64,000 nt of DNA. It comes from a virus. Below the pieces are notes generated by a model. It made no database searches, was not told the DNA's origin, and saw only the letters and a list, made by a program, of their open reading frames with translations. The stretch covers positions 99,907 to 163,906 of the IMG/VR virus record IMGVR_UViG_3300043786_000977, one strand, 5' to 3'. Below, in pieces: positions 4,406 to 61,937 of this stretch. The stretch's first letter is position 1. Each line of letters starts with the position of its first letter. The position numbers and the translations under genes are program-made.

Positions 4406-4850
4406 CTGGTGTTCGAACAGAGTGGCTGTGGACGGTGATCCTATTCTTATTCGTAGGTTTAAGAAGGCTGTTGCCGGCACCCGTAATGACGAGAACAAGC
4501 AGTTCAGTTTCAACCACATCACTCCGATACCACGTGAGTACAGAACAATGACCTGCCCGGTATCGGACAAGGATAAGAAGAAGTCTGCTGCGCTTGCGCA
4601 AAAGTACGGCTCCCCTGACTGGTACGACTGGTGTATAAAGAACTGGGGTACCAAGTGGGATCTACCCGTTGACGAGGACGTACTGGAAGACGAGGAACAC
4701 GAGAAGACGTTTGGTCGTCTGTGTTATTGTTTTGACACGGCCTGGGGACCGCCCTCACAAATCTGTACCAAGCTGCGCGAAATGTTCCCGGATCTGACCA
4801 TCAGTTGGTTCTACGACGAACCGGGTATGGCTGTAGCGGGATACCTATAA
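4398..4850 (+). CDS. hypothetical protein
   Basis: 150 aa ORF. Confidence 0.5.
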   Translation: MPNWCSNRVAVDGDPILIRRFKKAVAGTRNDENKQFSFNHITPIPREYRTMTCPVSDKDKKKSAALAQKYGSPDWYDWCIKNWGTKWDLPVDEDVLEDEEHEKTFGRLCYCFDTAWGPPSQICTKLREMFPDLTISWFYDEPGMAVAGYL

Positions 4851-4924
4851 GATTGCGTGCTACCTGGTCTACAAGGGCCAGGTAGTCACACAACAACATA
4901 AATACAACAGTGTAAAGGAAAACC

Positions 4925-5323
4925 ATGCTAACAAAACAAGAACTCGAAATAGGCTTGAACCAGTTCACAGGTACCACGGCTTATCACAGGATCAGTCCGC
5001 TCTTTCAGAATATCGTAATGACAGACGGGGTGAACTGGCTCTGCAAAGAGGCACGTTGTTATTGGCTGGCGGAAGCCATAGCTTCCCACCAACCCACGGC
5101 AATGAAACATCGGGCACTTAAACAGGCACAGTTCTGGGATCTGTCCCGGGTACCCAGTGGTGCTTCCGCAATGACCCTGACATGTGGTTCCGGCAGTAAG
5201 CGAGCCAAACCCGTGATTACTCAAGAGATTAAGTATACAGATTTCCCGTTGGATACCATTCGCCTGTACTGTATGCCTAACAGCGACGGGCCACAAGTGA
5301 TCCTATTACCATCGGAGTACTGA
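4925..5323 (+). CDS. hypothetical protein
   Basis: 132 aa ORF. Confidence 0.5.
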   Translation: MLTKQELEIGLNQFTGTTAYHRISPLFQNIVMTDGVNWLCKEARCYWLAEAIASHQPTAMKHRALKQAQFWDLSRVPSGASAMTLTCGSGSKRAKPVITQEIKYTDFPLDTIRLYCMPNSDGPQVILLPSEY

Positions 5324-26519: not shown

Positions 26520-27785
26520 ATGCCTTTTGTTCTATGCGTGATAGGACTTGGTTTCGGCGACGAGACTAAGGGTGCTACAGTAGACGCGCTCTGTCGACAT
26601 ACAGGCGCCGATGTGATTGTACGCCATAACGGTGGGGCACAGGCAGCGCACAATGTGTGTCTTCCTGACGGCCGGCATCATACGTTCGCCCAGATTGGCA
26701 GTGGGAGTTTCGTACCCAACGTACAGACAGTTCTATCCAAGTTCATGTTGGTGAATCCATCTACGTGGCTGGTGGAGGCAGAAAGTTTCTGTAAGCAGGC
26801 GAGTAGTGTACCGACGGTGTTAGGCGCACGTACATGGGTGGATGAACGAGCTGTCGTTACAACACCGTTCCACGTTGCACTCAACCGAACACGCGAATAT
26901 GCCCGTGGAGTTACAAAGCATGGTACGACGGGTATGGGGATCAGTGAGACTGTGCTCGATAGTCTATCCCGCTCGGATGTGATGCGTTGTGGTGATTTAC
27001 GGGGACCGAGAGGTCAGATCATGAGTGGACTACTGCGCACGCGTGAGGCGTTGCTGCCTGAGATCAAACGATTGGGCGCGGAGATAGAGTTCGATCGGTT
27101 GAACCCGGATCGGATCGTGGATCGTTTTATCAAGTTCGCCAACATGACTCATATCGTCTCCAATGAACGTTTGGCTAAGCTTACACAGGCCGCCAATGGC
27201 GTAATCTTTGAAGGTGCACAAGGCTTACTGTTGGACGAAAACTACGGATTCCACCCGCATACGACGTGGTCGACTACGACAGATCGTAATGCCCGTAACT
27301 TGTGTTTTGATTACGGTATTAGTTCACCTTACGTTATTGGTGTTACACGGACCTACGGTACCCGTCACGGTGCAGGGCCTTTTCCAGGCGAAGAGCCTAA
27401 AATGGGTTTTCCCGAACTGCACAATAACGACTCTGGTATGGCGGGAACCTTCCGTCAAGGATACTTGCATCTGCCCCTACTGAAGTATGCGGCGGTATGT
27501 ATGGGCCAGCTCAACGGACTGGCTGTCAGTCACCTGGATTGCCAACCATTTCGCTACTGTGATCTGGATACTGAACTGGTTCTTTCTATGCCGTGTACTA
27601 TACAGGCACAGGAGGGCTTGTGTCGGCAGGCTTGGCGTAGTAAGCCGACTGTGCGTTTGCACGACGAACAAGCAGGCGAGTTTCCGCGATTCCTTGCAAG
27701 TGAATTGAGTGTGCCGTTGTGCATGACCAGTGACGGACCTACACATCTGAACAGACAGGTCACACTACCCGCCGGCGTAGTGTAA
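26520..27785 (+). CDS. adenylosuccinate synthetase family protein (PurA-like, possibly PurZ-type)
   Basis: Collinear with E. coli PurA motifs: GFGDETKGA (QWGDEGKGK), VVRHNGGAQAAHNV, GTTGMGIS, FEGAQGLLLDENYGFHPHTTWSTT, RTYGTRHGAGPFPGEE. 421 aa. Confidence 0.85.
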   Translation: MPFVLCVIGLGFGDETKGATVDALCRHTGADVIVRHNGGAQAAHNVCLPDGRHHTFAQIGSGSFVPNVQTVLSKFMLVNPSTWLVEAESFCKQASSVPTVLGARTWVDERAVVTTPFHVALNRTREYARGVTKHGTTGMGISETVLDSLSRSDVMRCGDLRGPRGQIMSGLLRTREALLPEIKRLGAEIEFDRLNPDRIVDRFIKFANMTHIVSNERLAKLTQAANGVIFEGAQGLLLDENYGFHPHTTWSTTTDRNARNLCFDYGISSPYVIGVTRTYGTRHGAGPFPGEEPKMGFPELHNNDSGMAGTFRQGYLHLPLLKYAAVCMGQLNGLAVSHLDCQPFRYCDLDTELVLSMPCTIQAQEGLCRQAWRSKPTVRLHDEQAGEFPRFLASELSVPLCMTSDGPTHLNRQVTLPAGVV

Positions 27786-27957: not shown

Positions 27958-28725
27958 ATGTCGAAATTGCATGAAGTATTGGCGGTAGAGGGTGAGTTGG
28001 CGGGCGTGTTCAAGAACATCCTGCAGGAAACGGCCACCACGTTTGACAAGAAGCCAGATCACTTCCAGGGTCACGACAAGACGCTGGAAATGTTCGCGGC
28101 CGAACGCAAACCGGAAGAAGTGACCGAGCACAAGGAAGTGACCGAGACTGTACCCAGCAAGCTGGCGTATATGTTTGGGCATGCGGTGCGGTTCATCGAT
28201 TGCAATCTCCAGAAGGAAGCTGCGAACCAGGTGGCATTCGCCGACGTGGTCGTCACCGATGAAGTGACGGGTGTCACGACGACCATTGGTACGAGTCTGC
28301 CAGCCACGTTCCTGCTTGGGCTCGAAACCAAGCTGAAGTTGATTCGCGACGTACTCCAGACCATCCCGACTGTGCCTCCCGGGTTCACATGGACCGCCGA
28401 AGCCAGCGCAGAGAAAGCGGGACTGTGGCGCCGGAACGAGATCGAGGTTCGGCAGAAGACCGAGAAGGTCGTCAAGCCCGTGGTGCTGTATCCGGCGACG
28501 GACAAACATCCCGCGCAGGTCAAGGAACTGTCGGAAGATGTGCAGGTTGGGAAGTTCACCACCGTGCATTATAACGGCATGCTCACGCCGCTCGATAAGA
28601 GTCGACTGCTCGGCCGCATCGATGCGCTGGCCCGTGCGGTGAAGCAGGCACGTCAGCGTGCCAACTCGGTTGAGGTGCCACAGGTCGCCGTCGGTAAGGC
28701 GATCCAGGACTTCATTCTGGGCTAG
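27958..28725 (+). CDS. hypothetical protein
   Basis: 255 aa, strong RBS AAGGAGAAA. The overlapping minus ORF 27760..28569 is rejected. Confidence 0.55.
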   Translation: MSKLHEVLAVEGELAGVFKNILQETATTFDKKPDHFQGHDKTLEMFAAERKPEEVTEHKEVTETVPSKLAYMFGHAVRFIDCNLQKEAANQVAFADVVVTDEVTGVTTTIGTSLPATFLLGLETKLKLIRDVLQTIPTVPPGFTWTAEASAEKAGLWRRNEIEVRQKTEKVVKPVVLYPATDKHPAQVKELSEDVQVGKFTTVHYNGMLTPLDKSRLLGRIDALARAVKQARQRANSVEVPQVAVGKAIQDFILG

Positions 28726-28731
28726 ACTTTC

Positions 28732-28768
28732 GCGTCCGGTAGTTGTATATTACCGGACGTAATTTGAT
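28732..28768 (+). terminator. rho-independent terminator
   Basis: cgtccggta...taccggacg followed by taatttgattt. Confidence 0.5.
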
Positions 28769-29104
28769 TTCAGGTAAGTTCAGCGTATGTTGTAGTTGTT
28801 AGGGCGTCTGCCCATCATCGTCATCGTATTGCCTGAACAGCTTAAGCAATCCTTACGTGGAGTAGTGGGCTGACGTGCCTACAATAATACCAGATGTTGC
28901 AGGTTCAACTCCTGCCCCCGCTCCCATTAAACTATGGCGGGGTACCTCAATGGTTAGAGGGCTGGTACACTTCAAATTGAGCACGTTAGAGCTGCCAAAC
29001 ACAAACAAGGAGTCATGCTCTTGACTGAGCAGTTGTTATTTTATAACAATGACAAGGGGGGCCGGGAAAATAGGAACATCGACCCGGTCCCCCTTTCTTT
29101 TTTC
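28769..29104 (+). ncRNA. candidate ~330 nt ncRNA with a circularly permuted tRNA-like module (Y-RNA/YrlA-like tRNA mimic)
   Basis: No ORF, and the region is bounded by terminators at 28732-28768 and 29056-29104. Module at 28889..28966: accag (anticodon 3' strand), atgtt, T arm gcagg-ttcaact-cctgc, acceptor 3' ccccgct, c, CCA, 9 nt loop ttaaactat, acceptor 5' ggcgggg, ta, D arm cctc-aatggtta-gagg, g, ctggt (anticodon 5' strand). Every tRNA stem is complementary, but the gene order is permuted. Confidence 0.45.
29056..29104 (+). terminator. strong rho-independent terminator
   Basis: gggggg-ccggg ... cccgg-t-ccccc followed by tttcttttttcc. Confidence 0.7.
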
Positions 29105-29126
29105 CGACTCAAACAAGGAACACAGT

Positions 29127-29438
29127 ATGGCCACGACTTCGCCCGAGCCTCAGATTCCCCAGATTCTGCTGTACAGAGGTAAGATTTCCCTTACTGATGC
29201 CCAGCTCCAGGAGTTGCGTGATGCCGGTTACATACCCATCTGCGTGGATGACTTTTCGGATATATCCGTTATGAACGCTACTGGTATGGTCCCCGTAGCC
29301 ACCATCTGGAACTCTGCGATGGACGCAATCAACGGCGCTGATCAGACGGAAGGAGCTCGGTCACGTTTCGGCCGTTTGCTGTCACAGCGTCTCACGGACA
29401 TCTTTCTCAAACCGAAGAGTGCGGAGCCTAAACGATGA
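29127..29438 (+). CDS. hypothetical protein
   Basis: Start moved to ATG 29127 (MATTSPEPQ), after RBS AAGGAA and downstream of the terminator. 103 aa. Confidence 0.5.
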   Translation: MATTSPEPQIPQILLYRGKISLTDAQLQELRDAGYIPICVDDFSDISVMNATGMVPVATIWNSAMDAINGADQTEGARSRFGRLLSQRLTDIFLKPKSAEPKR

Positions 29439-30461: not shown

Positions 30462-30852
30462 GGGGCCATATTGGTTTCGACGTGATGACTTAGTTCGATA
30501 GATGCATGCCGTGGATTCTCGTTGGCCACGTTAATAAACGGGAAACAACCTTCAAAGGCCGAGCCAATGAAGCTGGCTGCTTAATCACAGCCATAGGAAC
30601 CCGGTGAGCGAGCAGTAACCGGCAGTACGACTCATACAGCTCTAAGCCTGTGAACCGGGCAAAAAGCGGGCGCTGACGAGCCTTGGGCGCAAGTCCAGAA
30701 CGGTCAGTGGTGGAGGGTGACGTAACCGTCGCCCCTGCACTCCTGGGTAGCACGCTTGGCGTATCCCAGGTTTTATTAACGCGAAGCAAGCATGTAGCAT
30801 TCTGTTGAGCGGTTTTTTACGGACGCGGGTTCGATTCCCGCTGGCTCCACCA
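30462..30852 (+). ncRNA. ssrA: tmRNA (SsrA), one-piece
   Basis: 5' ggggccatattggtttcgacg and 3' ggacgcgggttcgattcccgctggctccacca with a G3:U70 pair. Internal tag ORF ...GCC GAG CCA ATG AAG CTG GCT GCT TAA (ends ...MKLAA*). Confidence 0.85.
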
Positions 30853-31189
30853 TTTTGTATACGGTTGGTTAGGCTTCACCCTTAGCGGGGCGACTGTGGA
30901 ATCGGGATCAAGCCAGAGGTAGGGATACCAATGACGGCCTAGCTCGGTTATCCGTATACTTCATCTTTGGGTAAACGTAGTTAAAGGTCTGCGATCACAC
31001 TTTACAGACACTGCGGCCCGCAACGTTGAACGTCAGGTTATGTGTGCAGTGAATCGTTGCGGGTTACCCATCTTCTACGCTGAATGGTTTGCCCTTGTGG
31101 GCCTGTTGTTACGTTAACTGGTTATCCAGTCTACTCCGTCGTGCTTCGGCACGCATTATTACTAAAACAAGGAAATGAGGAGGTTTCAC

Positions 31190-32839
31190 ATGTTCGCATT
31201 TGTATTCGGTTGTCTGCTGATTGTTGCTGGATTGATCGCGCCACTGTTGCTCAGTGACGTGCTCAAACCAGTTGGGCGTACGCTGCTGGCGATTATCCTG
31301 GTGATGCTTGGCACGGTGGCAGTTGTGTTTTCGACATCGCTGTGGGTCAACACCAACTCTGGTGGTCTTATCACCAAGAAGTTTGGTGAAGGCCTGAAGG
31401 ATGGCCGGATCATCGCTGTTAGTGGTCAACGCGGGGTGCAGGCAGAGATTCTGTCGCCGGGTTGGTCGTTCGGATGGGCTCCGTGGCAGTACAATCTGGA
31501 GTCCGTACCTAATGTCGAGATCAAGGCAGGTACAGTCGGCGTAGTTACCGCCATGGATGGTGATCCATTACCCGCTGGCGAGATCTATGCCAAAGCCTGG
31601 GCGTCGCCTACGTTGATGCTGGATGCGAAAGCATTCCTCACCCAAGGTGGTCAGAAGGGTCCGCAACTTACCGTGCTGCCTCCGGGCCAGTATCGCTACA
31701 ATCCGAAACTGTTCCAGATTACACCGGCGCCGTGTATTGATGTGCCGATTGGATTCGCGGCTGGGGTTCGTGCAAATGCCGGCCTGCCCTTCAACGGTGA
31801 TGGTACTAACCAGACGGACGTCGTGAACGGTGTCCCGCTGGTACCGAATGGTTATAAAGGTTTGTGGTGTGAGCCACTCCTTCCCGGGCAGTATTACATG
31901 CATCCGCAGGCGTATCAGGTTATTTTGGTTCGGACCACCAAGCGCATGTACAGTTACACAGGCGTGGCGGGATCTGAAGCCAATACGGCCAGCAAGAAGG
32001 AACCGGAAGGCGATAATAGCATTCATGTGCGTTCGCAGGACTCGTTTGAGTTCCCTGTGGATGTGCGTGTAGCCGTGGCGATTTCGGCCAAGGACATACC
32101 CTATGTGGTGGCAAAGATTGCTGATCCGGACGCCGATTCAGACAAGAATGGCTTTGATAATATCGAGGAACGTGCCATTCTACCGTCAGTCAGAGCGATC
32201 CTGCGGAATACGGCTGAGGGTAAGAAGGCCATGGATTACGTCAACTCCCGCTCGCAGGTCGAGAAGGAGGCTCTGGCACGCTTCACTGTGGACATGGCCA
32301 AAGATCGGCTCGAGGTCGAAGGTTTCTATCTGGCCGATATCGGACTCAGCCGTACTGCAGCCGGTAAGGAATTGCTGAAGACGCAGACCGACAAGGAGAT
32401 TGCGATGCAGCAGCAGGACATGTACATGAAACAGGTCTTGGCTGCGAACGAACGTGGCAAGCAGGTTGAGGCTGAAGAGAAGGCCAATCAGCAGAAGGGT
32501 ATCCAGGCGTCGCAGGCTGGTATCAAGATCGCGGAACAGGATGCTGAGGCTGCCAAGCGTCGGGCTGAAGGTGACGCGGCACAGGCCTTGGTCTACAAGG
32601 CCAAGATTGATGCCCTGGGTGGCCCGGAGGCGTTCACCAAGTTCGAAGTGACCAAGATGATCGTGGAGAAGATGGCAGACGCGCTTAGTACCTGGAAACC
32701 CGCATTGCCACAGACCGTGGTTATGGGCCAGGGCGGCGGTGCCAACGGATCCGTTGATGGTATCTTGGCCGGAATCCTGGGCCAGATGAACACGGCTGCA
32801 ATGAAGCCCGCCGTGGTAGCGCAACCCACAGGAAAGTAA
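31190..32839 (+). CDS. SPFH/band-7 (flotillin-like) membrane protein
   Basis: RBS GAGGAGG, N-terminal TM helix, and a long coiled-coil EA-rich C-terminus typical of flotillin/YqiK. Confidence 0.55.
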   Translation: MFAFVFGCLLIVAGLIAPLLLSDVLKPVGRTLLAIILVMLGTVAVVFSTSLWVNTNSGGLITKKFGEGLKDGRIIAVSGQRGVQAEILSPGWSFGWAPWQYNLESVPNVEIKAGTVGVVTAMDGDPLPAGEIYAKAWASPTLMLDAKAFLTQGGQKGPQLTVLPPGQYRYNPKLFQITPAPCIDVPIGFAAGVRANAGLPFNGDGTNQTDVVNGVPLVPNGYKGLWCEPLLPGQYYMHPQAYQVILVRTTKRMYSYTGVAGSEANTASKKEPEGDNSIHVRSQDSFEFPVDVRVAVAISAKDIPYVVAKIADPDADSDKNGFDNIEERAILPSVRAILRNTAEGKKAMDYVNSRSQVEKEALARFTVDMAKDRLEVEGFYLADIGLSRTAAGKELLKTQTDKEIAMQQQDMYMKQVLAANERGKQVEAEEKANQQKGIQASQAGIKIAEQDAEAAKRRAEGDAAQALVYKAKIDALGGPEAFTKFEVTKMIVEKMADALSTWKPALPQTVVMGQGGGANGSVDGILAGILGQMNTAAMKPAVVAQPTGK

Positions 32840-56353: not shown

Positions 56354-56487
56354 CGAAGCGTGGAATGCAGGAAAAAGGGAAGAAGGGTCAGCTGTGCATT
56401 AAGTGTGGCAAGGAGCGCGCTTCACGTACGGGCATGGGTGGCCGGTTACTCTGCAACAAGTGTTTCACAAAAGAATGTGGACTATAA
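56350..56487 (+). CDS. small zinc-ribbon protein (45 aa)
   Basis: GGAGGAG RBS. Contains CIKCGK...CNKCF. Confidence 0.4.
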   Translation: MTKRGMQEKGKKGQLCIKCGKERASRTGMGGRLLCNKCFTKECGL

Positions 56488-56488
56488 C

Positions 56489-57265
56489 ATGATATATCCA
56501 AATGACATTGTACCTGTCGAGGTACAGCAGGAGATCGGGCCGCCGTATGACTGGTGTGTCCTGTCAGGTTACACAGGCAGTCACGCGTACGGTACCTATG
56601 TCCCGCCTGAACACGAGTTCGGTACGGATGACGTAGACATAATGGGTGTGATGATCCCGCCGGTTGAGTATTACCTGGGGTTCCGCAAGATGGATCACTG
56701 TCTCTACCAGAAGGGTAAGTGGGATATCCTGCTTTACGAGTTCAGACATTTCGTTAGTCTGTTACTCAAGGGTAATCCAAACGTCATCGGTATGCTCTGG
56801 TTACGACCTGAGGACTACCTGATCAGAAGTCCAGCGATGGATGAACTAATTGCCAATCGACATCTGTTCTGCGGGAAGCATGTCTTCGACTCATTTCGTG
56901 GTTATGCCTCAGGCCAATTATATAAGATGCAGCATGCTGTACGTGAAGGGTACATGGGCGAGAAGCGGCGTAAACTCGTTGAGCGTTTCGGGTACGACGT
57001 AAAGAATGCTGCGCATATGATTCGGCTACTGCGTATGGGCCAGGAGTTCCTCAAGACTGGCACGTTACAGGTGTATCGTACAGACGACGCACAGCAGCTG
57101 ATCGAGATCAAGACAGGGCTGTGGCCGTTGGATCGTGTGATGGACTTGGCGCATGCTGAGTTTGATTGGTTGGATGCTGCCTATGCAGCAAGCACATTAC
57201 CTGAGAAACCGCAAACAGCGGAAGTTGAAGCAAGGGTGATTAGCATACTGAAAGGTCGTATATGA
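56489..57265 (+). CDS. nucleotidyltransferase (Pol-beta superfamily, MNT-like) domain protein
   Basis: GSHAYGTY...GTDDVDIMGV, the GS...DxD motif. Confidence 0.45.
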   Translation: MIYPNDIVPVEVQQEIGPPYDWCVLSGYTGSHAYGTYVPPEHEFGTDDVDIMGVMIPPVEYYLGFRKMDHCLYQKGKWDILLYEFRHFVSLLLKGNPNVIGMLWLRPEDYLIRSPAMDELIANRHLFCGKHVFDSFRGYASGQLYKMQHAVREGYMGEKRRKLVERFGYDVKNAAHMIRLLRMGQEFLKTGTLQVYRTDDAQQLIEIKTGLWPLDRVMDLAHAEFDWLDAAYAASTLPEKPQTAEVEARVISILKGRI

Positions 57266-57660
57266 GTTCGTTGGTAAAGTTGACAACATCCAAGGGTAGG
57301 GAGATTAATCTTGATGAGATTGACGGCTTGGCGGATCGCATCGAGGAACTGACAGACATGCTGGCCGCACGTAGTGAACAGATCACAGAGTTGCGGAGTG
57401 TAATTCACGATCGTTCAACGTCTGTACCAGACCCGATCGAGTTACCGGCGGTTGCTGAGATCAAACGGGCGTTGGCCCCGGAAGTGCAGCACCAAGCTAT
57501 GTACAGGAAGGTTGCTGTCGAGAAGTACAAGAAGAGCGGTAGTTTCAGCGACGGGGATATCGACTTCGACGCTGAGCCCGAAGTTAGTGCAGCTGATGCT
57601 GATGCAGACGGCGCTTACGTCGCTGCTTGGGTGTGGGTAAGTAAAGACGAAATCGAATAG
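57262..57660 (+). CDS. hypothetical acidic protein
   Basis: 132 aa ORF. Confidence 0.5.
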   Translation: MSSLVKLTTSKGREINLDEIDGLADRIEELTDMLAARSEQITELRSVIHDRSTSVPDPIELPAVAEIKRALAPEVQHQAMYRKVAVEKYKKSGSFSDGDIDFDAEPEVSAADADADGAYVAAWVWVSKDEIE

Positions 57661-57668
57661 AGGTAAAT

Positions 57669-58757
57669 ATGGATCAAGGTCTTAGTCAGGTTGCTATACA
57701 GGGAATCATTCGCCGTAAGATAGGAGATTGGCTGGAGTCGATTGACAACATGGAGTTGCGGCTCTTCCTGTCTGATAAAATCATCGTTACGGGCGGCGCG
57801 ATCGCATCGTTGCTTCGCGGGGAGAAGGTGAACGATTACGATGTCTACTTCACAACGCGGGAAGCAGCCACACGCGTAGCCAGTTATTACTTGGCACGTT
57901 TCGCAGCGAATCCGCCAAAGAGTATGCAGCAGTCACCCGTACGTATGTACGTGGATGATAAGTCAGATCCCGACCGTGTACGTATTGTTATCCAGTCGGC
58001 CGGTGTGATATCTACCGACGGTGATGGCGGCAAGTACGAGTACTTCGAAACGACACCGCCCGCGAATGCCGCAGATTACGTTGCTGACGTGGTAGCCCCG
58101 GTCGTGGATGAAGACGAACAGCGGCTTACCAACGAACTCAGGGACTCGACTACGGATGCCGGTATACCCGACAGTGATAATCCCGAGCTCATGCGCCTCG
58201 TCGAACAGGCAGCCACTGAGGACCTGCCGCCGATGGCGACAGGTCCAGGGGCCAAGGCAAAGAACAGGTATCGGCCGATCTTCCTGTCCGGTAATGCCAT
58301 CACCTTGAGCGACGAGATTCAGCTCATCATCAGGTTCTATGGCCCCGCGGAGGAACTCCACAAGAACTTCGATTTCGTCCACTGCACGAACTACTGGCAG
58401 TCAGAGATGCGTGTCGGCGCGAAGTTCGGGGGTACCCTGGTGGTAAACACGCCAGCCCTTATGAGCCTGATGTCCAAACGTCTGGGGTATATCGGTAGCC
58501 GGTATCCGTTATGCAGTTTGATCCGGACCCGTAAGTTCGTCCGGCGCGGTTGGACGGCGCCGGCCGGTGTGTTCATCAAGGCGATGCACCAGTGCCTGGC
58601 CCTGGACTGGAATAAAATCGAAACCTGGAGAGAACAGTTGACCGGGGTGGATACCGCCTACTTTGCTGAAATCATCGAGATCCTCAAGCGGGATCAGGCA
58701 GCAGGGAAGTCCATAGACTCGGCATACGTCGTTGCCTTAATCGATAGGTTAATTTAA
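57669..58757 (+). CDS. CCA-adding enzyme / poly(A) polymerase-family nucleotidyltransferase-like protein
   Basis: KIIVTGGAIASLLRGEKVNDYDVYF resembles the head motif of class II tRNA nucleotidyltransferases (LVGGAVRDLLLG...DIDI). Confidence 0.45.
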   Translation: MDQGLSQVAIQGIIRRKIGDWLESIDNMELRLFLSDKIIVTGGAIASLLRGEKVNDYDVYFTTREAATRVASYYLARFAANPPKSMQQSPVRMYVDDKSDPDRVRIVIQSAGVISTDGDGGKYEYFETTPPANAADYVADVVAPVVDEDEQRLTNELRDSTTDAGIPDSDNPELMRLVEQAATEDLPPMATGPGAKAKNRYRPIFLSGNAITLSDEIQLIIRFYGPAEELHKNFDFVHCTNYWQSEMRVGAKFGGTLVVNTPALMSLMSKRLGYIGSRYPLCSLIRTRKFVRRGWTAPAGVFIKAMHQCLALDWNKIETWREQLTGVDTAYFAEIIEILKRDQAAGKSIDSAYVVALIDRLI

Positions 58758-59418: not shown

Positions 59419-59753
59419 TTTACCCACTATAGGGCACCGATCTTTCATATTTTAACATGCGGATAGTAGGAGTCAGGCAGCAGCATAAACTACAGGACCT
59501 AGATGTCGTTGGTTCAAGTCCAACACCCTGCGCCAATACAGTTGCAGGGTTAGCTCAGTTGGTAGAGCACCAGGAAAAAACTGATTCTGTAATCCGCACC
59601 ATCTTCGAGGTTGTTAAGAGTGGCACAGCAAAAACTCGTCCTCACGGACATTGCTTTCCCAGCAAACCAGAGTCCACTCTGTATTTTTCATTTTAGCTTC
59701 GGACTGTAGAATTCGTACAGCAAACAACTACCTCCTGCATAAGGAGGTTTTCG
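59419..59753 (+). ncRNA. candidate ncRNA with a circularly permuted tRNA-like module (Y-RNA/YrlA-like tRNA mimic)
   Basis: Module at 59495..59571: T arm gttgg-ttcaagt-ccaac, acceptor 3' accctgc, g, CCA, 8 nt loop atacagtt, acceptor 5' gcagggt (7/7 complementary), ta, D arm gctc-agttggta-gagc, a, ccagg. Promoter upstream; candidate terminators at 59668-59697 and 59731-59753. Confidence 0.45.
59731..59753 (+). terminator. rho-independent terminator
   Basis: cctcct-gcata-aggagg followed by ttttcg. Confidence 0.45.
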
Positions 59754-59805
59754 CCCTCATATGCGAAAACTATATCGAATTCGTAGTCCTCTTTTTCTCA
59801 TCGTT

Positions 59806-60090
59806 CGTAAGGATAGCGCAGCAATCAATCGCCCTTCGGGGCACTAGCCTGTTAAGCTAACCACAGTCTATCCTGTGACCTTTCATTTTCGTACACTCTG
59901 TGACTTCAGCAACTATCGTAGGGATAGCGCAGCAATCAACCGCCCTTCGGGGCACTAGTTATTGGAACTAACCATAGCCTATCCCGTGACTTTTCACTTT
60001 TCAACGCACTCTGTGACTTAAGCGAGCACCGTAGGAATGAGTCGGCAGTCGGCCCTTAACCGGGCGCTACTTCGTCCGAAAGGATGCATG
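59806..60090 (+). repeat. tandem ~112 nt direct repeats (2.5 copies) encoding structured RNA elements
   Basis: Copies at 59806, 59917 and 60030. Each has a closing helix aggatag/ctatcct (copy 1) or gggatag/ctatccc (copy 2), i.e. compensatory A-U to G-C changes, plus a conserved gccc-UUCG-gggc tetraloop hairpin. Confidence 0.6.
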
Positions 60091-60264
60091 AAAAACTGTG
60101 GTACCGGGCACATATGTGTTAACGGGCCACGCGGTGTGATCATTGATTACGCACACTGATATAATAAAAGGTAATCCGTTGCGCACGAGTCGTTATCTTG
60201 GGCGGTCCCGCCGAGGGACTTAAATAACCGTGCAAGTATTCTGTGGTGCTAGCTTATCTGTTCT

Positions 60265-60417
60265 TGTTAAGGATGACGCAGCAAATATCACCCCGCAAGG
60301 GGCGATGGGTTCGATTCCCATAGAGCCCGTTAGGGCTTTGTCAATGGCGACAAATAAGTCATCCTGTACTTTGTTATGTAAGGCCTCGTCCGAGTGGACG
60401 GGGCCTTTGCCTTTTGT
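60265..60417 (+). ncRNA. structured sRNA of the same family, immediately upstream of the Ro60-like gene
   Basis: Shares the 5' aaggatgacgcagcaa / 3' gtcatcctgt closing helix with the tandem repeats. Has a GNRA hairpin cacccc-gcaa-ggggcg, a T-arm-like hairpin atggg-ttcgatt-cccat, and a terminator at 60382-60417. Confidence 0.45.
60382..60417 (+). terminator. rho-independent terminator
   Basis: ggcctcgtcc-gagt-ggacggggcc followed by tttgccttttgt. Confidence 0.6.
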
Positions 60418-60443: not shown

Positions 60444-61937
60444 ATGCGTAAGACAACGTCAATGATCAGAGGTCACAATTCAGATCCCTTGCACGCGCAC
60501 AGCGGGGATCATCACCTGGAGTTCTTCTCGAAGGCGGGTTCGCTCTTCGTGAAGGGCAAGGGTAAGAAAGGCGCCAGCTACTACGGTACCAGTTCCGAGA
60601 CGACAGCCCTGTCACTCTTCCAGCCCATGTGGATGTCGCCAGGCCTGGAGAACAAGACACTGGCCATGCAGTTGCTGTTCTGGTTACGTGATCCCCGCGG
60701 TGGCGCCGGCAATCGGTCGGGTTTCCGGGAAATCGTGCGCTGGTTGGCGCAGCAGCCTGAGACGTCGGTTGATCCGTCGGGTGCCACTTGGCTGGGTGTC
60801 AACCTGTTGCGGGTTCCGGAATGGGGACGCTGGGACGATCTGGCAGAACTGTACGGTACGTCACTCGAGCCGCTTGTCGCGGGCGTCTGGACAGAAGCGA
60901 TCATGCGGAAGGAGCACCTGGCTTGTAAGTGGGCCAAGGTTGATATGGTACCGCTGCAGCGCGCCCTGAAAATCAATGAGCGTGGGTTGCGGATGTTGAT
61001 CGTACCGCCCCGTGCCACGATCGTTGAGCGTGCTATGTGCGCGGGTGACTGGACTGCCGTGGACTACTCGAAGATTCCGAGTAAGGCGATGTCCATGTAC
61101 ACGAAGGCGTTCCGGATGCACGACAAGCCCCGGTTCGACGAGTACAAGGCGGCACTGGTGCGTGGGGATAAAGGCGTGAAGATTAACGCTAGTGTGTTGT
61201 TCCCGCACGACTGTGTGAAGCAGGCGAAGACTGGTGATCAGATCATCGCTGAAGCGCAGTTTAAAGCGTTGCCCGATTTCATCGGTGGCACGGATCGGCG
61301 TATCATCGTGTTGGCTGACCGGTCTGGTTCGATGGGTGCTATAGCGCAGGATACGATTACGAACGATAATGTGGCTGTGGCCTTGGCGCTGTATTGCAGC
61401 GATCGGCTGGGTCCGCAGAATCCGTTCTATCGGCAGTATCTGGAATTCCAGAGTACACCGTTCTGGGTGGATTGGAAAAACGAGACGTTTGTGCAAGCCT
61501 GTCGGTCCGGTCAAGGATTCGCGGGTAGCACGAACTTACAAGGGGCGCTTGACGCTATATTGAAGCAGGGCAAAGCTTGGAGAGTCCCTCCGGCACAGAT
61601 GCCTACGATGCTTCTGATCGTCAGCGATATGCAGTTCGATAACCACGTTACTGGGGGAACCCGGATGATAGCCTGTCACGGAACTGAACAGACTGTGGTT
61701 GAGAAATGTATGCAACAGTGGGAAGCTGCTGGTTATCAGCGGCCGACTATTGTTTTCTGGAATCTTGCAGGCTACGCAGGGCAACCTGCGCAAGCACAGA
61801 CACCGAACACTGCCCTTGTGTCCGGTTTCTCACCTGCCATACTGAAATCCATACTGTCTGGTAAAGAAGTTTTACCCCGAGAGGTCATGCTCCGGGCAAT
61901 AGCTAAATATCAGGTAGAGGTCCCCTGCGTGGGGTAA
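60444..61937 (+). CDS. Ro60/Rsr-like protein (TROVE-like N-terminal region with C-terminal vWA/MIDAS domain)
   Basis: 497 aa, RBS AAGGAGACGA. C-terminal vWA with IIVLADRSGSMG (DxSxS), AGSTNL and VSDMQF, which parallels human Ro60 LAVDVSASM / AGGTDCS / FTDNET. N-terminal GASYYGTS resembles Ro60 GGTYY. Lies directly downstream of the Y-RNA-like sRNAs. Confidence 0.5.
   Translation: MRKTTSMIRGHNSDPLHAHSGDHHLEFFSKAGSLFVKGKGKKGASYYGTSSETTALSLFQPMWMSPGLENKTLAMQLLFWLRDPRGGAGNRSGFREIVRWLAQQPETSVDPSGATWLGVNLLRVPEWGRWDDLAELYGTSLEPLVAGVWTEAIMRKEHLACKWAKVDMVPLQRALKINERGLRMLIVPPRATIVERAMCAGDWTAVDYSKIPSKAMSMYTKAFRMHDKPRFDEYKAALVRGDKGVKINASVLFPHDCVKQAKTGDQIIAEAQFKALPDFIGGTDRRIIVLADRSGSMGAIAQDTITNDNVAVALALYCSDRLGPQNPFYRQYLEFQSTPFWVDWKNETFVQACRSGQGFAGSTNLQGALDAILKQGKAWRVPPAQMPTMLLIVSDMQFDNHVTGGTRMIACHGTEQTVVEKCMQQWEAAGYQRPTIVFWNLAGYAGQPAQAQTPNTALVSGFSPAILKSILSGKEVLPREVMLRAIAKYQVEVPCVG

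Follow-up and report, generated by a model that had tools for sequence, protein, structure and literature searches.

The 64,000-nucleotide (nt) stretch of viral DNA analyzed here, positions 99,907 to 163,906 of IMG/VR virus record IMGVR_UViG_3300043786_000977 (hereafter the window, whose coordinates are used unless a related locus is named), carries at 28.9 kb a noncoding unit with a tRNA-like module, directly downstream of a gene for a DUF7873 protein. This 28.9 kb element is a genuine RNA gene, the small and structured product of which falls into the YrlA class; YrlA RNAs contain T, D, and acceptor arms in a tRNA-like domain (PMC4201824). It belongs to a hitherto undescribed subfamily found directly downstream of DUF7873 in many unrelated phages, devoid of Ro60-binding-type motifs, and usually with an encoded discriminator-CCA followed by a segment of variable length. 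The architecture itself is known; new are DUF7873 as the neighbor, the occurrence in phages that lack Ro60, the missing GNCGAA and CAGCA motifs, and the encoded N-CCA. Our preferred interpretation, to which we give a probability of roughly 0.6, is that the 28.9 kb unit specifies a trans-acting, probably two-piece tRNA mimic of the YrlA class, representative of a DUF7873-linked, Ro60-independent subfamily.

A YrlA-class module at 28.9 kb

A first-pass annotation of the window had described a "permuted" tRNA-like module at 28889..28966. A read-out of the + strand confirmed each of its segments base for base, at the coordinates given in that annotation. Read from the sequence, the module is composed as follows.

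28889-28893 with 28962-28966, + strand: anticodon-like stem, ACCAG with CUGGU
28894-28898, + strand: variable-region equivalent AUGUU (includes U48)
28899-28915, + strand: T arm, GCAGG-UUCAACU-CCUGC
28916-28922, + strand: acceptor 3' strand, CCCCGCU
28923, + strand: discriminator C
28924-28926, + strand: encoded CCA
28927-28935, + strand: 9-nt A-rich loop, UUAAACUAU
28936-28942, + strand: acceptor 5' strand, GGCGGGG
28943-28944, + strand: U8-A9 (UA)
28945-28960, + strand: D arm, CCUC-AAUGGUUA-GAGG (with A14, A15, G18, and G19)
28961, + strand: G26 (G)

In the minimum free energy (MFE) fold of positions 28865-28995, a terminal stem, long and imperfect, leads to an anticodon-like stem of 6 bp and on to the T arm, the acceptor hairpin, and the D arm. 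Beyond the 5 to 6 bp of the anticodon-like stem, the two strands form an A-rich internal loop and then a stem of at least 9 bp. The tRNA-shaped module is thus placed on the tip of a long 5'/3' stem, which stands where a tRNA has its anticodon loop; similar imperfect stems formed by the 5' and 3' ends are present in most family members. In the YrlA class, this stem is regarded as the Ro60-binding module. The tertiary signature of a tRNA is also there, i.e., U8, G18G19, a T loop conforming to UUCRANY, and a covarying Levitt pair.

A covariance-model search, the check proposed in the first-pass annotation, returned YrlA (RF02553) as the sole Rfam match in 28600-29300. The match was obtained in sensitive mode, is full-length (28872-28990), and scores 38.9 bits with E = 5.5e-7, computed over 701 nt. 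The score falls under the RF02553 gathering score of 69, and in gathering mode no match is returned; relatives of the element score 25 to 39 bits with the same model or go undetected. The 3' strand of the element is rich in A (AAAUUGAGCA) and similar to the Rfam consensus.

The structural criteria published for YrlA describe the element well: T arm, acceptor stem-loop, and D arm follow one another in permuted order, the module being closed at its acceptor end and left open at the anticodon. The authors of the Salmonella YrlA study themselves speak of a circularly permuted tRNA whose acceptor stem is closed, and report a covarying Levitt pair (10.1101/312249). Given the Rfam match and this published design, the "permuted" order is the native topology of the class and implies no rearrangement. 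With this refinement, the first-pass reading of a genuine, non-accidental module with permuted segments stands.

The only experimentally studied YrlA with a 7-bp acceptor stem is that of Mycobacterium smegmatis (PMC4201824), which shares with the 28.9 kb element the long 5'/3' stem, the permuted T arm/D arm order, and the 7-bp, loop-closed acceptor stem. RNase P cuts the M. smegmatis RNA at the position of a tRNA 5' end, both in vitro and in vivo; this RNA gains a CCA end and consists of two associated halves (PMC4201824; 10.1101/312249). The 28.9 kb element resembles it in the 7-bp stem, the U at position -1, and the discriminator followed by CCA. It differs in that the CCA is encoded in the genome, not added, in lacking both a GNCGAA motif and an adjoining Ro60 gene, in having DUF7873 as its neighbor, and in possessing an extra conserved 5' domain. 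The YrlA of Salmonella Typhimurium (crystal structure 6CU1; 10.1101/312249) has the same overall design and tRNA tertiary interactions as the 28.9 kb element but, unlike it, has a 6-bp acceptor stem without CCA, is not cut by RNase P, and belongs to the rsr-yrlBA-rtcBA operon, no more than 2 kb from rsr.

In agreement with the first-pass annotation, the element is neither a linear tRNA nor an attP core. ARAGORN called 26 tRNAs and one transfer-messenger RNA (tmRNA) in the window, all on the + strand, and made no call at this site. Permuted tRNA genes of the Cyanidioschyzon type, the ends of which can be joined into a 7-nt anticodon loop, do not provide a fit either. Neither a U33/anticodon-loop pattern nor a bulge-helix-bulge-type junction was found in the element, and the closing stems vary in length among its relatives.

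Conservation, linkage to DUF7873, and the encoded CCA

To define the family, one covariance model was derived from the two cores present in the window (R1) and another from 21 family cores (R2). These models, the E values of which are rough, find hairpin-closed, non-tRNA modules in about 40 related phage loci (designated below by L numbers, with positions in locus coordinates). In the 21 cores, aligned with the loop excised, 88.9% of the pairs were formed, versus 57.8% after shuffling, and the score was 0.82 versus 0.22 (0/500 shuffles); the covariation collapsed once the partners were slid against each other. A model-based alignment of 35 rows, which still includes two tRNA-junction false positives, gave 93% pairing and a score of 0.93 versus 0.23 for shuffled rows (0/500), with slid controls at 0.11 to 0.18. 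Such an alignment leans toward the modeled structure, but a MAFFT-based count gave the same picture.

Covariation extends to every helix of the module. Over the 35 rows, the T arm and the acceptor stem are 100% paired, with double-sided changes at 4 of 5 and 7 of 7 pairs, respectively; the figure is 94% for the D stem, with double changes at all four pairs, and 76% for the closing anticodon-like stem, where all five pairs show them. U8 and G18G19 are invariant in the family alignment, and the T loop is conserved. Complementarity served in part to place the acceptor 5' strand; the invariant U8 and the D arm next to it set its register independently. The tertiary Levitt pair 15:48 is G15:C48 in 13 cores and A15:U48 in 8, with no exception among the 21 (0/500 shuffles); the 28.9 kb element has A15:U48, and a second element in the window, at 59.5 kb, has G15:C48. 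This perfect covariation argues for a true L-shaped fold.

The whole unit was also aligned with those of three relatives, L123, L034, and L125, whose DUF7873 proteins are 90%, 68%, and 51% identical to that of the window. The terminal stem is preserved by compensation (CUGACGUGC/GCACGUUAG in the window versus CCGAUGUGC/GCAUAUCGG in L034), compensatory changes occur in the T stem as well, and the string C-CCA-UU.A.AC is conserved.

These data led us to reject a recently broken tRNA, a chance rearrangement, or a degenerate remnant as the origin of the module, since it is conserved with compensation across loci in which the neighboring protein is 28 to 95% identical. The first-pass annotation had likewise argued against a chance rearrangement, and the Rfam match (E = 5.5e-7), the MFE fold, and the covarying homologs bear this out; a recent disruption of a normal tRNA gene, which it had thought might emerge from related genomes, is ruled out by conservation and covariation in about 40 related loci. 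Chen et al. warned that junctions between two tRNA genes can mimic YrlA-like modules (PMC4201824), and many matches of our models elsewhere were indeed such junctions. Here this artefact is excluded by the lack of any ARAGORN tRNA call at the site and by the mutual pairing of the two acceptor strands. A search among the phage tRNAs for a donor of the core gave no clear candidate.

The second defining feature of the family is its genomic position. In 33 of 33 IMG/VR loci retrieved with the DUF7873 protein (28 to 48% identity), RNA modules lie 100 to 1,400 nt downstream of the DUF7873 homolog, on the same strand, the module matches being weak in L002, L004, L019, and L022. The pairing recurs in closer metagenomic relatives (L034, L038, and L123 to L127) and in three cultured phages, namely the jumbo myovirus phiRSL1 (ORF270), the N4-like Vibrio phage K479, and the Gordonia siphovirus Keelan. 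In phiRSL1, the modules occupy the unannotated gap between ORF269 and ORF270 (L128 4209-4692). In GenBank records, the RNA is either unannotated or overlapped by small hypothetical coding sequences that are probably spurious (L119 18625-18780, K479 VPHK479_0060; L120 21043-21288, Keelan gp126). No near relatives were found among GenBank phages at the DNA level. DUF7873 itself comprises at least 1,094 clusters at 90% identity. Its AlphaFold2 model is confident (predicted local distance difference test [pLDDT], 87.8), but fold and family libraries yielded no informative match and no recognizable RNA-binding fold. A literature search for DUF7873 or DUF2828 in connection with Ro60 or tRNA-like RNAs found nothing relevant.

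Many DUF7873 loci have two modules in tandem (L005 to L009, L020, L023, L024, L026, L028, and L030, at about 4560-4990). In the upstream module of the tandem, the D arm is like that of class II tRNAs (UGGCGRAAyUGGCAGACGC) and a CCA is usually lacking; in the lineage of the window, a non-tRNA-like 5' domain stands in its place. A module-like match not beside DUF7873 was seen in L006 (2185-2343; 44 bits, R1), between two tRNA genes and with an apparent insert of ~100 nt in the acceptor hairpin.

The third feature is the acceptor end. In this phage, each of the 26 tRNA genes and the tmRNA gene (23000-54904, all + strand) encodes its 3' CCA, and both Y-like elements of the window do so too, directly after the 7-bp acceptor stem and the discriminator. 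A CCA triplet occupies this position in 22 of 32 DUF7873-linked modules, where 1.6% would be expected, and just 4 modules have it fully paired. The segment between the CCA and the acceptor 5' strand measures 3 to 42 nt and often forms a hairpin of its own, sometimes followed by a run of U; U is also the commonest nucleotide at position -1 in these modules. In the subgroup of the window (the window, L123, L034, L125, L013, L014, and L017) the segment is an unpaired, A-rich loop of 8 to 14 nt, and N-CCA is invariant despite completely diverged stems, with C73 common. The identity elements for alanine (G3:U70) and histidine (G-1:C73) are not present in the 28.9 kb element.

Boundaries of the unit and relation to the Ro60-like gene

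The RNA is part of a terminator-bounded unit between the DUF7873 gene and a small open reading frame (ORF); from the DUF7873 gene onward, the components are the following.

27958..28725, + strand: DUF7873 gene, 255 aa (Pfam PF25283, E = 1.6e-67)
28723-28751, + strand: sigma70-like site TAGACT-17-TATATT, overlapping the terminator at 28732..28770
28732..28770, + strand: intrinsic terminator 3' of the DUF7873 gene; 12-bp hairpin 28732-28760 and U-rich tail AAUUUGAUUU, -19.5 kcal/mol, z = -5.4
28769..28837, + strand: 5' domain of the unit; predicted 9-bp stem, UUCAGGUAA (28769-28777) with UUGCCUGAA (28829-28837), enclosing small hairpins
28862..28995, + strand: YrlA-class RNA proper, with terminal imperfect stem 28862-28881 with 28977-28995
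29011..29052, + strand: two small 3' hairpins between RNA and terminator, lineage specific (kept in L123, largely missing in L034)
29054..29104, + strand: intrinsic terminator of the unit; hairpin 29054-29095 with a 13-bp G/C stem, then UUUCUUUUUU, -27.3 kcal/mol

Both of the terminators with which the first-pass annotation had delimited the unit are thus real (hairpins 28732-28760 and 29054-29095). The second was missed by a pattern scan because its loop measures 16 nt, and it carries a compensatory G-C to C-G change in L123. The upstream terminator has an interrupted U-tract; its hairpin (28732-28760) and the promoter-like hexamers are kept in L123. According to the alignment and consensus fold, the 5' domain comprises two blocks that are invariant in the relatives, TCAGGTAAGTTCAGCGT and TCATCGT..GTATTGCCTGAACAG. 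They are retained even in L125, although the neighboring DUF7873 protein is only 51% identical, and a hairpin inside the domain is maintained by compensatory changes (GGGC/GCCC, GGGU/ACCC, and CCCGGA/UUCGGG). TATYGYY, a motif related to these blocks, is found 50 to 63 nt upstream of the core in 12 of 22 family members. We considered whether the blocks could be a recurrent phage promoter and rejected this, since each occurs once in the 64 kb window and so is not a general promoter motif.

A coding function of the unit was rejected as well: it contains no more than short ORFs, the relatives differ from one another by 1-nt indels, and a segment with Shine-Dalgarno sequence and ATG is deleted in L034. 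The one ORF in the unit preceded by a Shine-Dalgarno sequence (a good AAGGAG) would encode 55 aa (29015-29182, + strand), begins inside the unit, and reads through its terminator; it is probably no gene, given that its start region is absent in L034.

Downstream of the unit follow an ORF of 103 aa (29127-29438), an epimerase gene, and the tmRNA gene (30462-30852). The window also encodes an adenylosuccinate synthetase (26520-27785) and an SPFH/Band_7 protein (31175-32839). Several relatives have a tmRNA gene 0.1 to 3 kb downstream of the DUF7873-RNA pair, of standard type in the window, L123 (1377-1769), and L125 (4200-4589) and circularly permuted in L030 (7505-7839) and L033 (7184-7510); in L123 it directly follows the unit, without intervening 103-aa ORF or epimerase gene. 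In L035 (3768-3844), and also in L036 and L037, the whole 400-nt RNA unit is missing while the downstream genes (103-aa ORF, epimerase, Band_7) are the same, a presence/absence polymorphism among fairly close relatives.

The second Y-like element of the window and the Ro60-like gene lie some 31 kb further on.

59480..59593, + strand: paralogous YrlA-like element upstream of the Ro60-like gene (Rfam YrlA, 32.8 bits; core including G-CCA)
60444..61937, + strand: Ro60-like protein gene (Pfam DUF2828 and DUF7788; phrog_850, "RNA-binding protein")

Ro60/TROVE proteins combine a ring of HEAT repeats with a vWA/MIDAS domain. The ORF at 60444..61937 has no Pfam TROVE match and no PDB match by sequence. 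When its AlphaFold2 model (pLDDT, 89.6) was compared with the PDB, on the other hand, the nine best matches were all Ro60/Rsr structures, matched along the full length with probability 1.0 and template modeling scores of 0.48 to 0.62, and the protein is 31.6% identical over its full length to a mycobacteriophage "Ro-like RNA binding protein." The element at 59480-59593 has the same architecture as the one at 28.9 kb, as the first-pass annotation had noted, with a match to Rfam YrlA and the same core, the two cores showing 80% mean column identity. Phage Ro60 genes with adjacent Y-like RNAs are already known (PMC4201824; PMC12135203; PMC7824862), e.g., from mycobacteriophages, CcrColossus, Bacillus phage G, and the Thermus phage phiLo, and the 59.5 kb element conforms to them: it is a YrlA-like RNA ~850 nt upstream of a Ro60-fold gene on the same strand. 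The 28.9 kb element differs from these RNAs in being unlinked to Ro60, in having no CGAA- or CAGCA-type handle, and in having relatives in Ro60-less phages.

The difference in handle is seen within the window. The 59.5 kb element has a CAGCA motif, CAGCAGCA, at -22/-19 (59473-59484), whereas CUGACGUG occupies the equivalent place in the 28.9 kb unit and CAGCA is absent from 28700-29110. The two elements hence share a tRNA-like "effector" core and carry different "handles." CAGCA is typical of the modules that accompany Ro60-like genes. A DUF2828 profile query of IMG/VR was followed up for the best 80 of more than 550 loci, and genuine hairpin-closed modules, mostly 200 to 400 nt upstream of the DUF2828 gene, were present in about 10 of these 80 viral loci; the motif lies at -19 to -25 in 10 of 11 DUF2828-linked RNAs, the 59.5 kb element among them. 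CAGCA(A)-bearing modules beside DUF2828 genes are located at L087 2222, L075 2090, L064 2086, L107 799, L068 2128, L086 1898, L049 3939/4215, and L097 248. CAGCA(A) is a candidate recognition site for the DUF2828-type Ro60 subfamily, in place of the published GNCGAA motif. The latter motif, GNCGAAN0-1G, proposed as the Rsr contact, is not found in the 28.9 kb element, which has GACGUGCC (GNCG only); it occurs in 1 of 30 family members, against a background of 3.5%, and is absent from both the DUF7873- and the DUF2828-linked sets.

Between the 59.5 kb element and the Ro60-like gene, short hairpins occur at 59600-60360 (+ strand), each after an [A/G]C[A/G]CAGCAA-type motif. Seven [C/G]AGCAA sites are present at 59.0-60.45 kb versus ~0.8 expected, with motif sites at 59621, 59655, 59713, 59814, 59902, 59925, and 60274 in the 850 nt between element and gene. 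The repeats at about 59810 and about 59921 are near-identical (GATAGCGCAGCAATCAAnCGCCCTTCGGGGCACTAG), and 60292-60356 is YrlB-like, with a T arm and a 7-bp hairpin but no D arm. The region looks like an array of additional Y-like RNAs. Just upstream of the cluster, at 56360-58757 (+ strand), are genes for an RlaP-family RNA-repair nucleotidyltransferase (PF10127, phrog_388) and a 362-aa protein (phrog_4400), which together with the Y-RNA/Ro60-like cluster suggest an RNA repair or quality-control gene block.

That the 28.9 kb RNA is a classical Y RNA is the alternative that survives best, although we consider it doubtful. It would be a second partner of the phage Ro60-like protein (60444-61937), bound in trans via the terminal stem, and its role would be to tether or gate Ro60, for instance jointly with host PNPase, in a RYPER-like manner as in Deinococcus, Salmonella, and the Thermus phage phiLo. 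The Rfam YrlA match and the consensus-like A-rich 3' strand AAAUUGAGCA are in keeping with such a role, as is the presence in one genome of a Ro60-fold protein and a paralogous RNA with a closely similar core. More than one Y RNA per bacterium is common (PMC4201824), and the phiRo60 protein of phiLo binds two of them, Yrl1 and Yrl2, in addition to host PNPase (PMC12135203). The description of the YrlA class includes binding to and stabilization by Ro60/Rsr, with TruB and DusA as modifiers (Chen et al. 2014; Rfam RF02553), and YrlA RNAs have been searched for at distances of up to 4 kb from a Ro60/TROVE gene, on its strand (PMC4201824). The 28.9 kb element is on the same strand as the Ro60-like gene but 31.5 kb away from it (28995 to 60444), and has CUGACGUG instead of the GNCGAA or CAGCA motif. 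In addition, its family is syntenic with DUF7873, not with Ro60, and occurs in three complete genomes, those of K479, Keelan, and phiRSL1, in which no Ro60-like gene was found by tblastn with up to seven diverse queries or by a profile search over six-frame ORFs. The tie to the Ro60-like gene 31 kb away implied in the first-pass annotation is thus not borne out by the neighbor, the 5' motif, or the distribution of the family. For co-occurrence of DUF7873 and the Ro60-like gene, these three genomes took the place of the IMG/VR contigs, for which a single-protein query gave no matches and the best 80 of more than 550 loci from the profile query included none on shared contigs.

A proposed two-piece tRNA mimic and the alternatives

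In our preferred interpretation, a transcript of ~330 nt would run from about 28760 to the terminator at 29104 and fold into an L-shape recognized by tRNA enzymes. RNase P is predicted to cut between U28935 and G28936, i.e., 5' of G28936, after which 3' exonucleases would trim the loop back to the CCA at 28926. From the encoded N-CCA, together with the M. smegmatis precedent, we infer an RNA in two pieces, with a 5' phosphate at G28936 and CCA-3'OH at A28926; the pieces would be held together by the acceptor, D/T, and stem helices, and the product would have no anticodon. This tRNA mimic would act with DUF7873 and/or with host tRNA-binding factors, and not through the phage Ro60-like protein. 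Going further, it is possible, if well short of probable, that DUF7873 and the CCA-ended, probably two-piece mimic form a Ro60-independent phage ribonucleoprotein module that has spread horizontally among jumbo myoviruses, N4-like podoviruses, and actinophage siphoviruses, and in which the acceptor end is functional (charged, targeted, or sequestered).

A specialization of this interpretation, which on present data seems unlikely, is that the RNA serves as a decoy or sponge for host factors that attack or modify tRNA acceptor ends or elbows (toxin nucleotidyltransferases, acceptor-stem nucleases, or exonucleases), thereby shielding the phage tRNA/tmRNA set. The phage has a sizable set to shield, its 26 tRNAs and tmRNA all with encoded CCA, and in many phages the RNA is located within the tRNA/tmRNA island. 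What the module retains, namely the acceptor, T arm, D arm, and CCA but not the anticodon loop, would suit a decoy, and the nearby RNA-repair-type genes (RlaP) suggest RNA-level conflict. The neighbors, however, match no defense or anti-defense family, and some 30% of the members have no CCA.

More improbable still is a cis function in the 3' untranslated region of DUF7873, where the element would stabilize the 3' end of the upstream mRNA or offer a processing site of the RNase P/RNase Z type. The invariant same-strand position directly downstream of DUF7873 would be expected of such an element, the interrupted U-tract of the upstream terminator could permit read-through, and there is precedent for tRNA-like 3'-end processing of long RNAs (10.1101/312249). 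Yet a strong hairpin terminator separates gene and RNA in the window and in L123, the RNA has a conserved 5' domain, a long closing stem, and a terminator of its own, the distance between gene and RNA varies from 100 to 1,400 nt, and L035 to L037 keep DUF7873 without the RNA.

Genes for two-piece (circularly permuted) tmRNA have the same order as the 28.9 kb element: T arm, acceptor 3' strand, NCCA, intervening segment, acceptor 5' strand. In the maturation of permuted tmRNA, the intervening segment is excised, which leaves two base-paired pieces and a free CCA end. Unlike tmRNA, the element has a complete D arm, no mRNA-like tag, no pseudoknots, and no G3:U70; its acceptor pair 3:70 is C:G, and its closing stem follows directly 3' of the D arm. 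A translation-active RNA, whether a permuted tRNA or a minimal two-piece tmRNA-like RNA that is aminoacylated and enters the ribosome or is religated into a tRNA, is hardly credible, for although the gene order is that of permuted tmRNA genes, relatives carry such tmRNAs, and a tmRNA gene lies just downstream in the window, L123, and L125, the element has neither anticodon loop nor bulge-helix-bulge motif nor tag reading frame, its closing stems vary in length and sequence, its D stem is full, and ARAGORN and the Rfam tmRNA and tmRNA_permuted models make no call at it.

Several observations weigh against a two-piece, DUF7873-linked, Ro60-independent mimic. The relatives L035 to L037 have a 64% identical DUF7873 but no RNA beside the gene, with only 76 nt to the next one. 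DUF7873 is acidic to neutral (isoelectric point about 6.4 to 6.7) and has no RNA-binding fold, which leaves gene order as the one line of evidence for a partnership, and since it is always found in tRNA-gene islands, the island setting alone could explain the adjacency. About one-third of the members have no CCA, and in four others the CCA is paired within an extended hairpin, so that a free CCA end is not universal. As regards Ro60, the searches used DUF2828-type queries and a DUF2828-type profile, which a very divergent TROVE protein could escape; the hosts of Ro-less phages may supply their own Rsr; and the phage analyzed here does encode a Ro60-like protein and a paralogous RNA with a similar core, which makes binding in trans conceivable. 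Finally, transcription, ends, processing, partner, and role of the 28.9 kb RNA are all deduced from sequence.

Partnership with Ro60 has to date been the defining feature of Y RNAs, and YrlA RNAs of bacteria and phages have been found only by searching within 4 kb of Ro60 genes. The 28.9 kb element shows the same tRNA-mimic scaffold as a separate, deeply conserved family that is tied to DUF7873 and persists in phages without Ro60. Because the family is represented in the cultured, genetically tractable phages phiRSL1, Keelan, and K479, the hypothesis is directly testable. If a DUF7873 module is confirmed, Y-RNA-like tRNA mimics would be a general scaffold for more than one protein family. If, moreover, the encoded CCA marks a processed, free acceptor end, viruses would possess a widespread class of anticodon-less, two-piece tRNA-like RNAs, which would raise questions about their charging, about decoys against tRNA-targeting defenses, and about RNA quality control.

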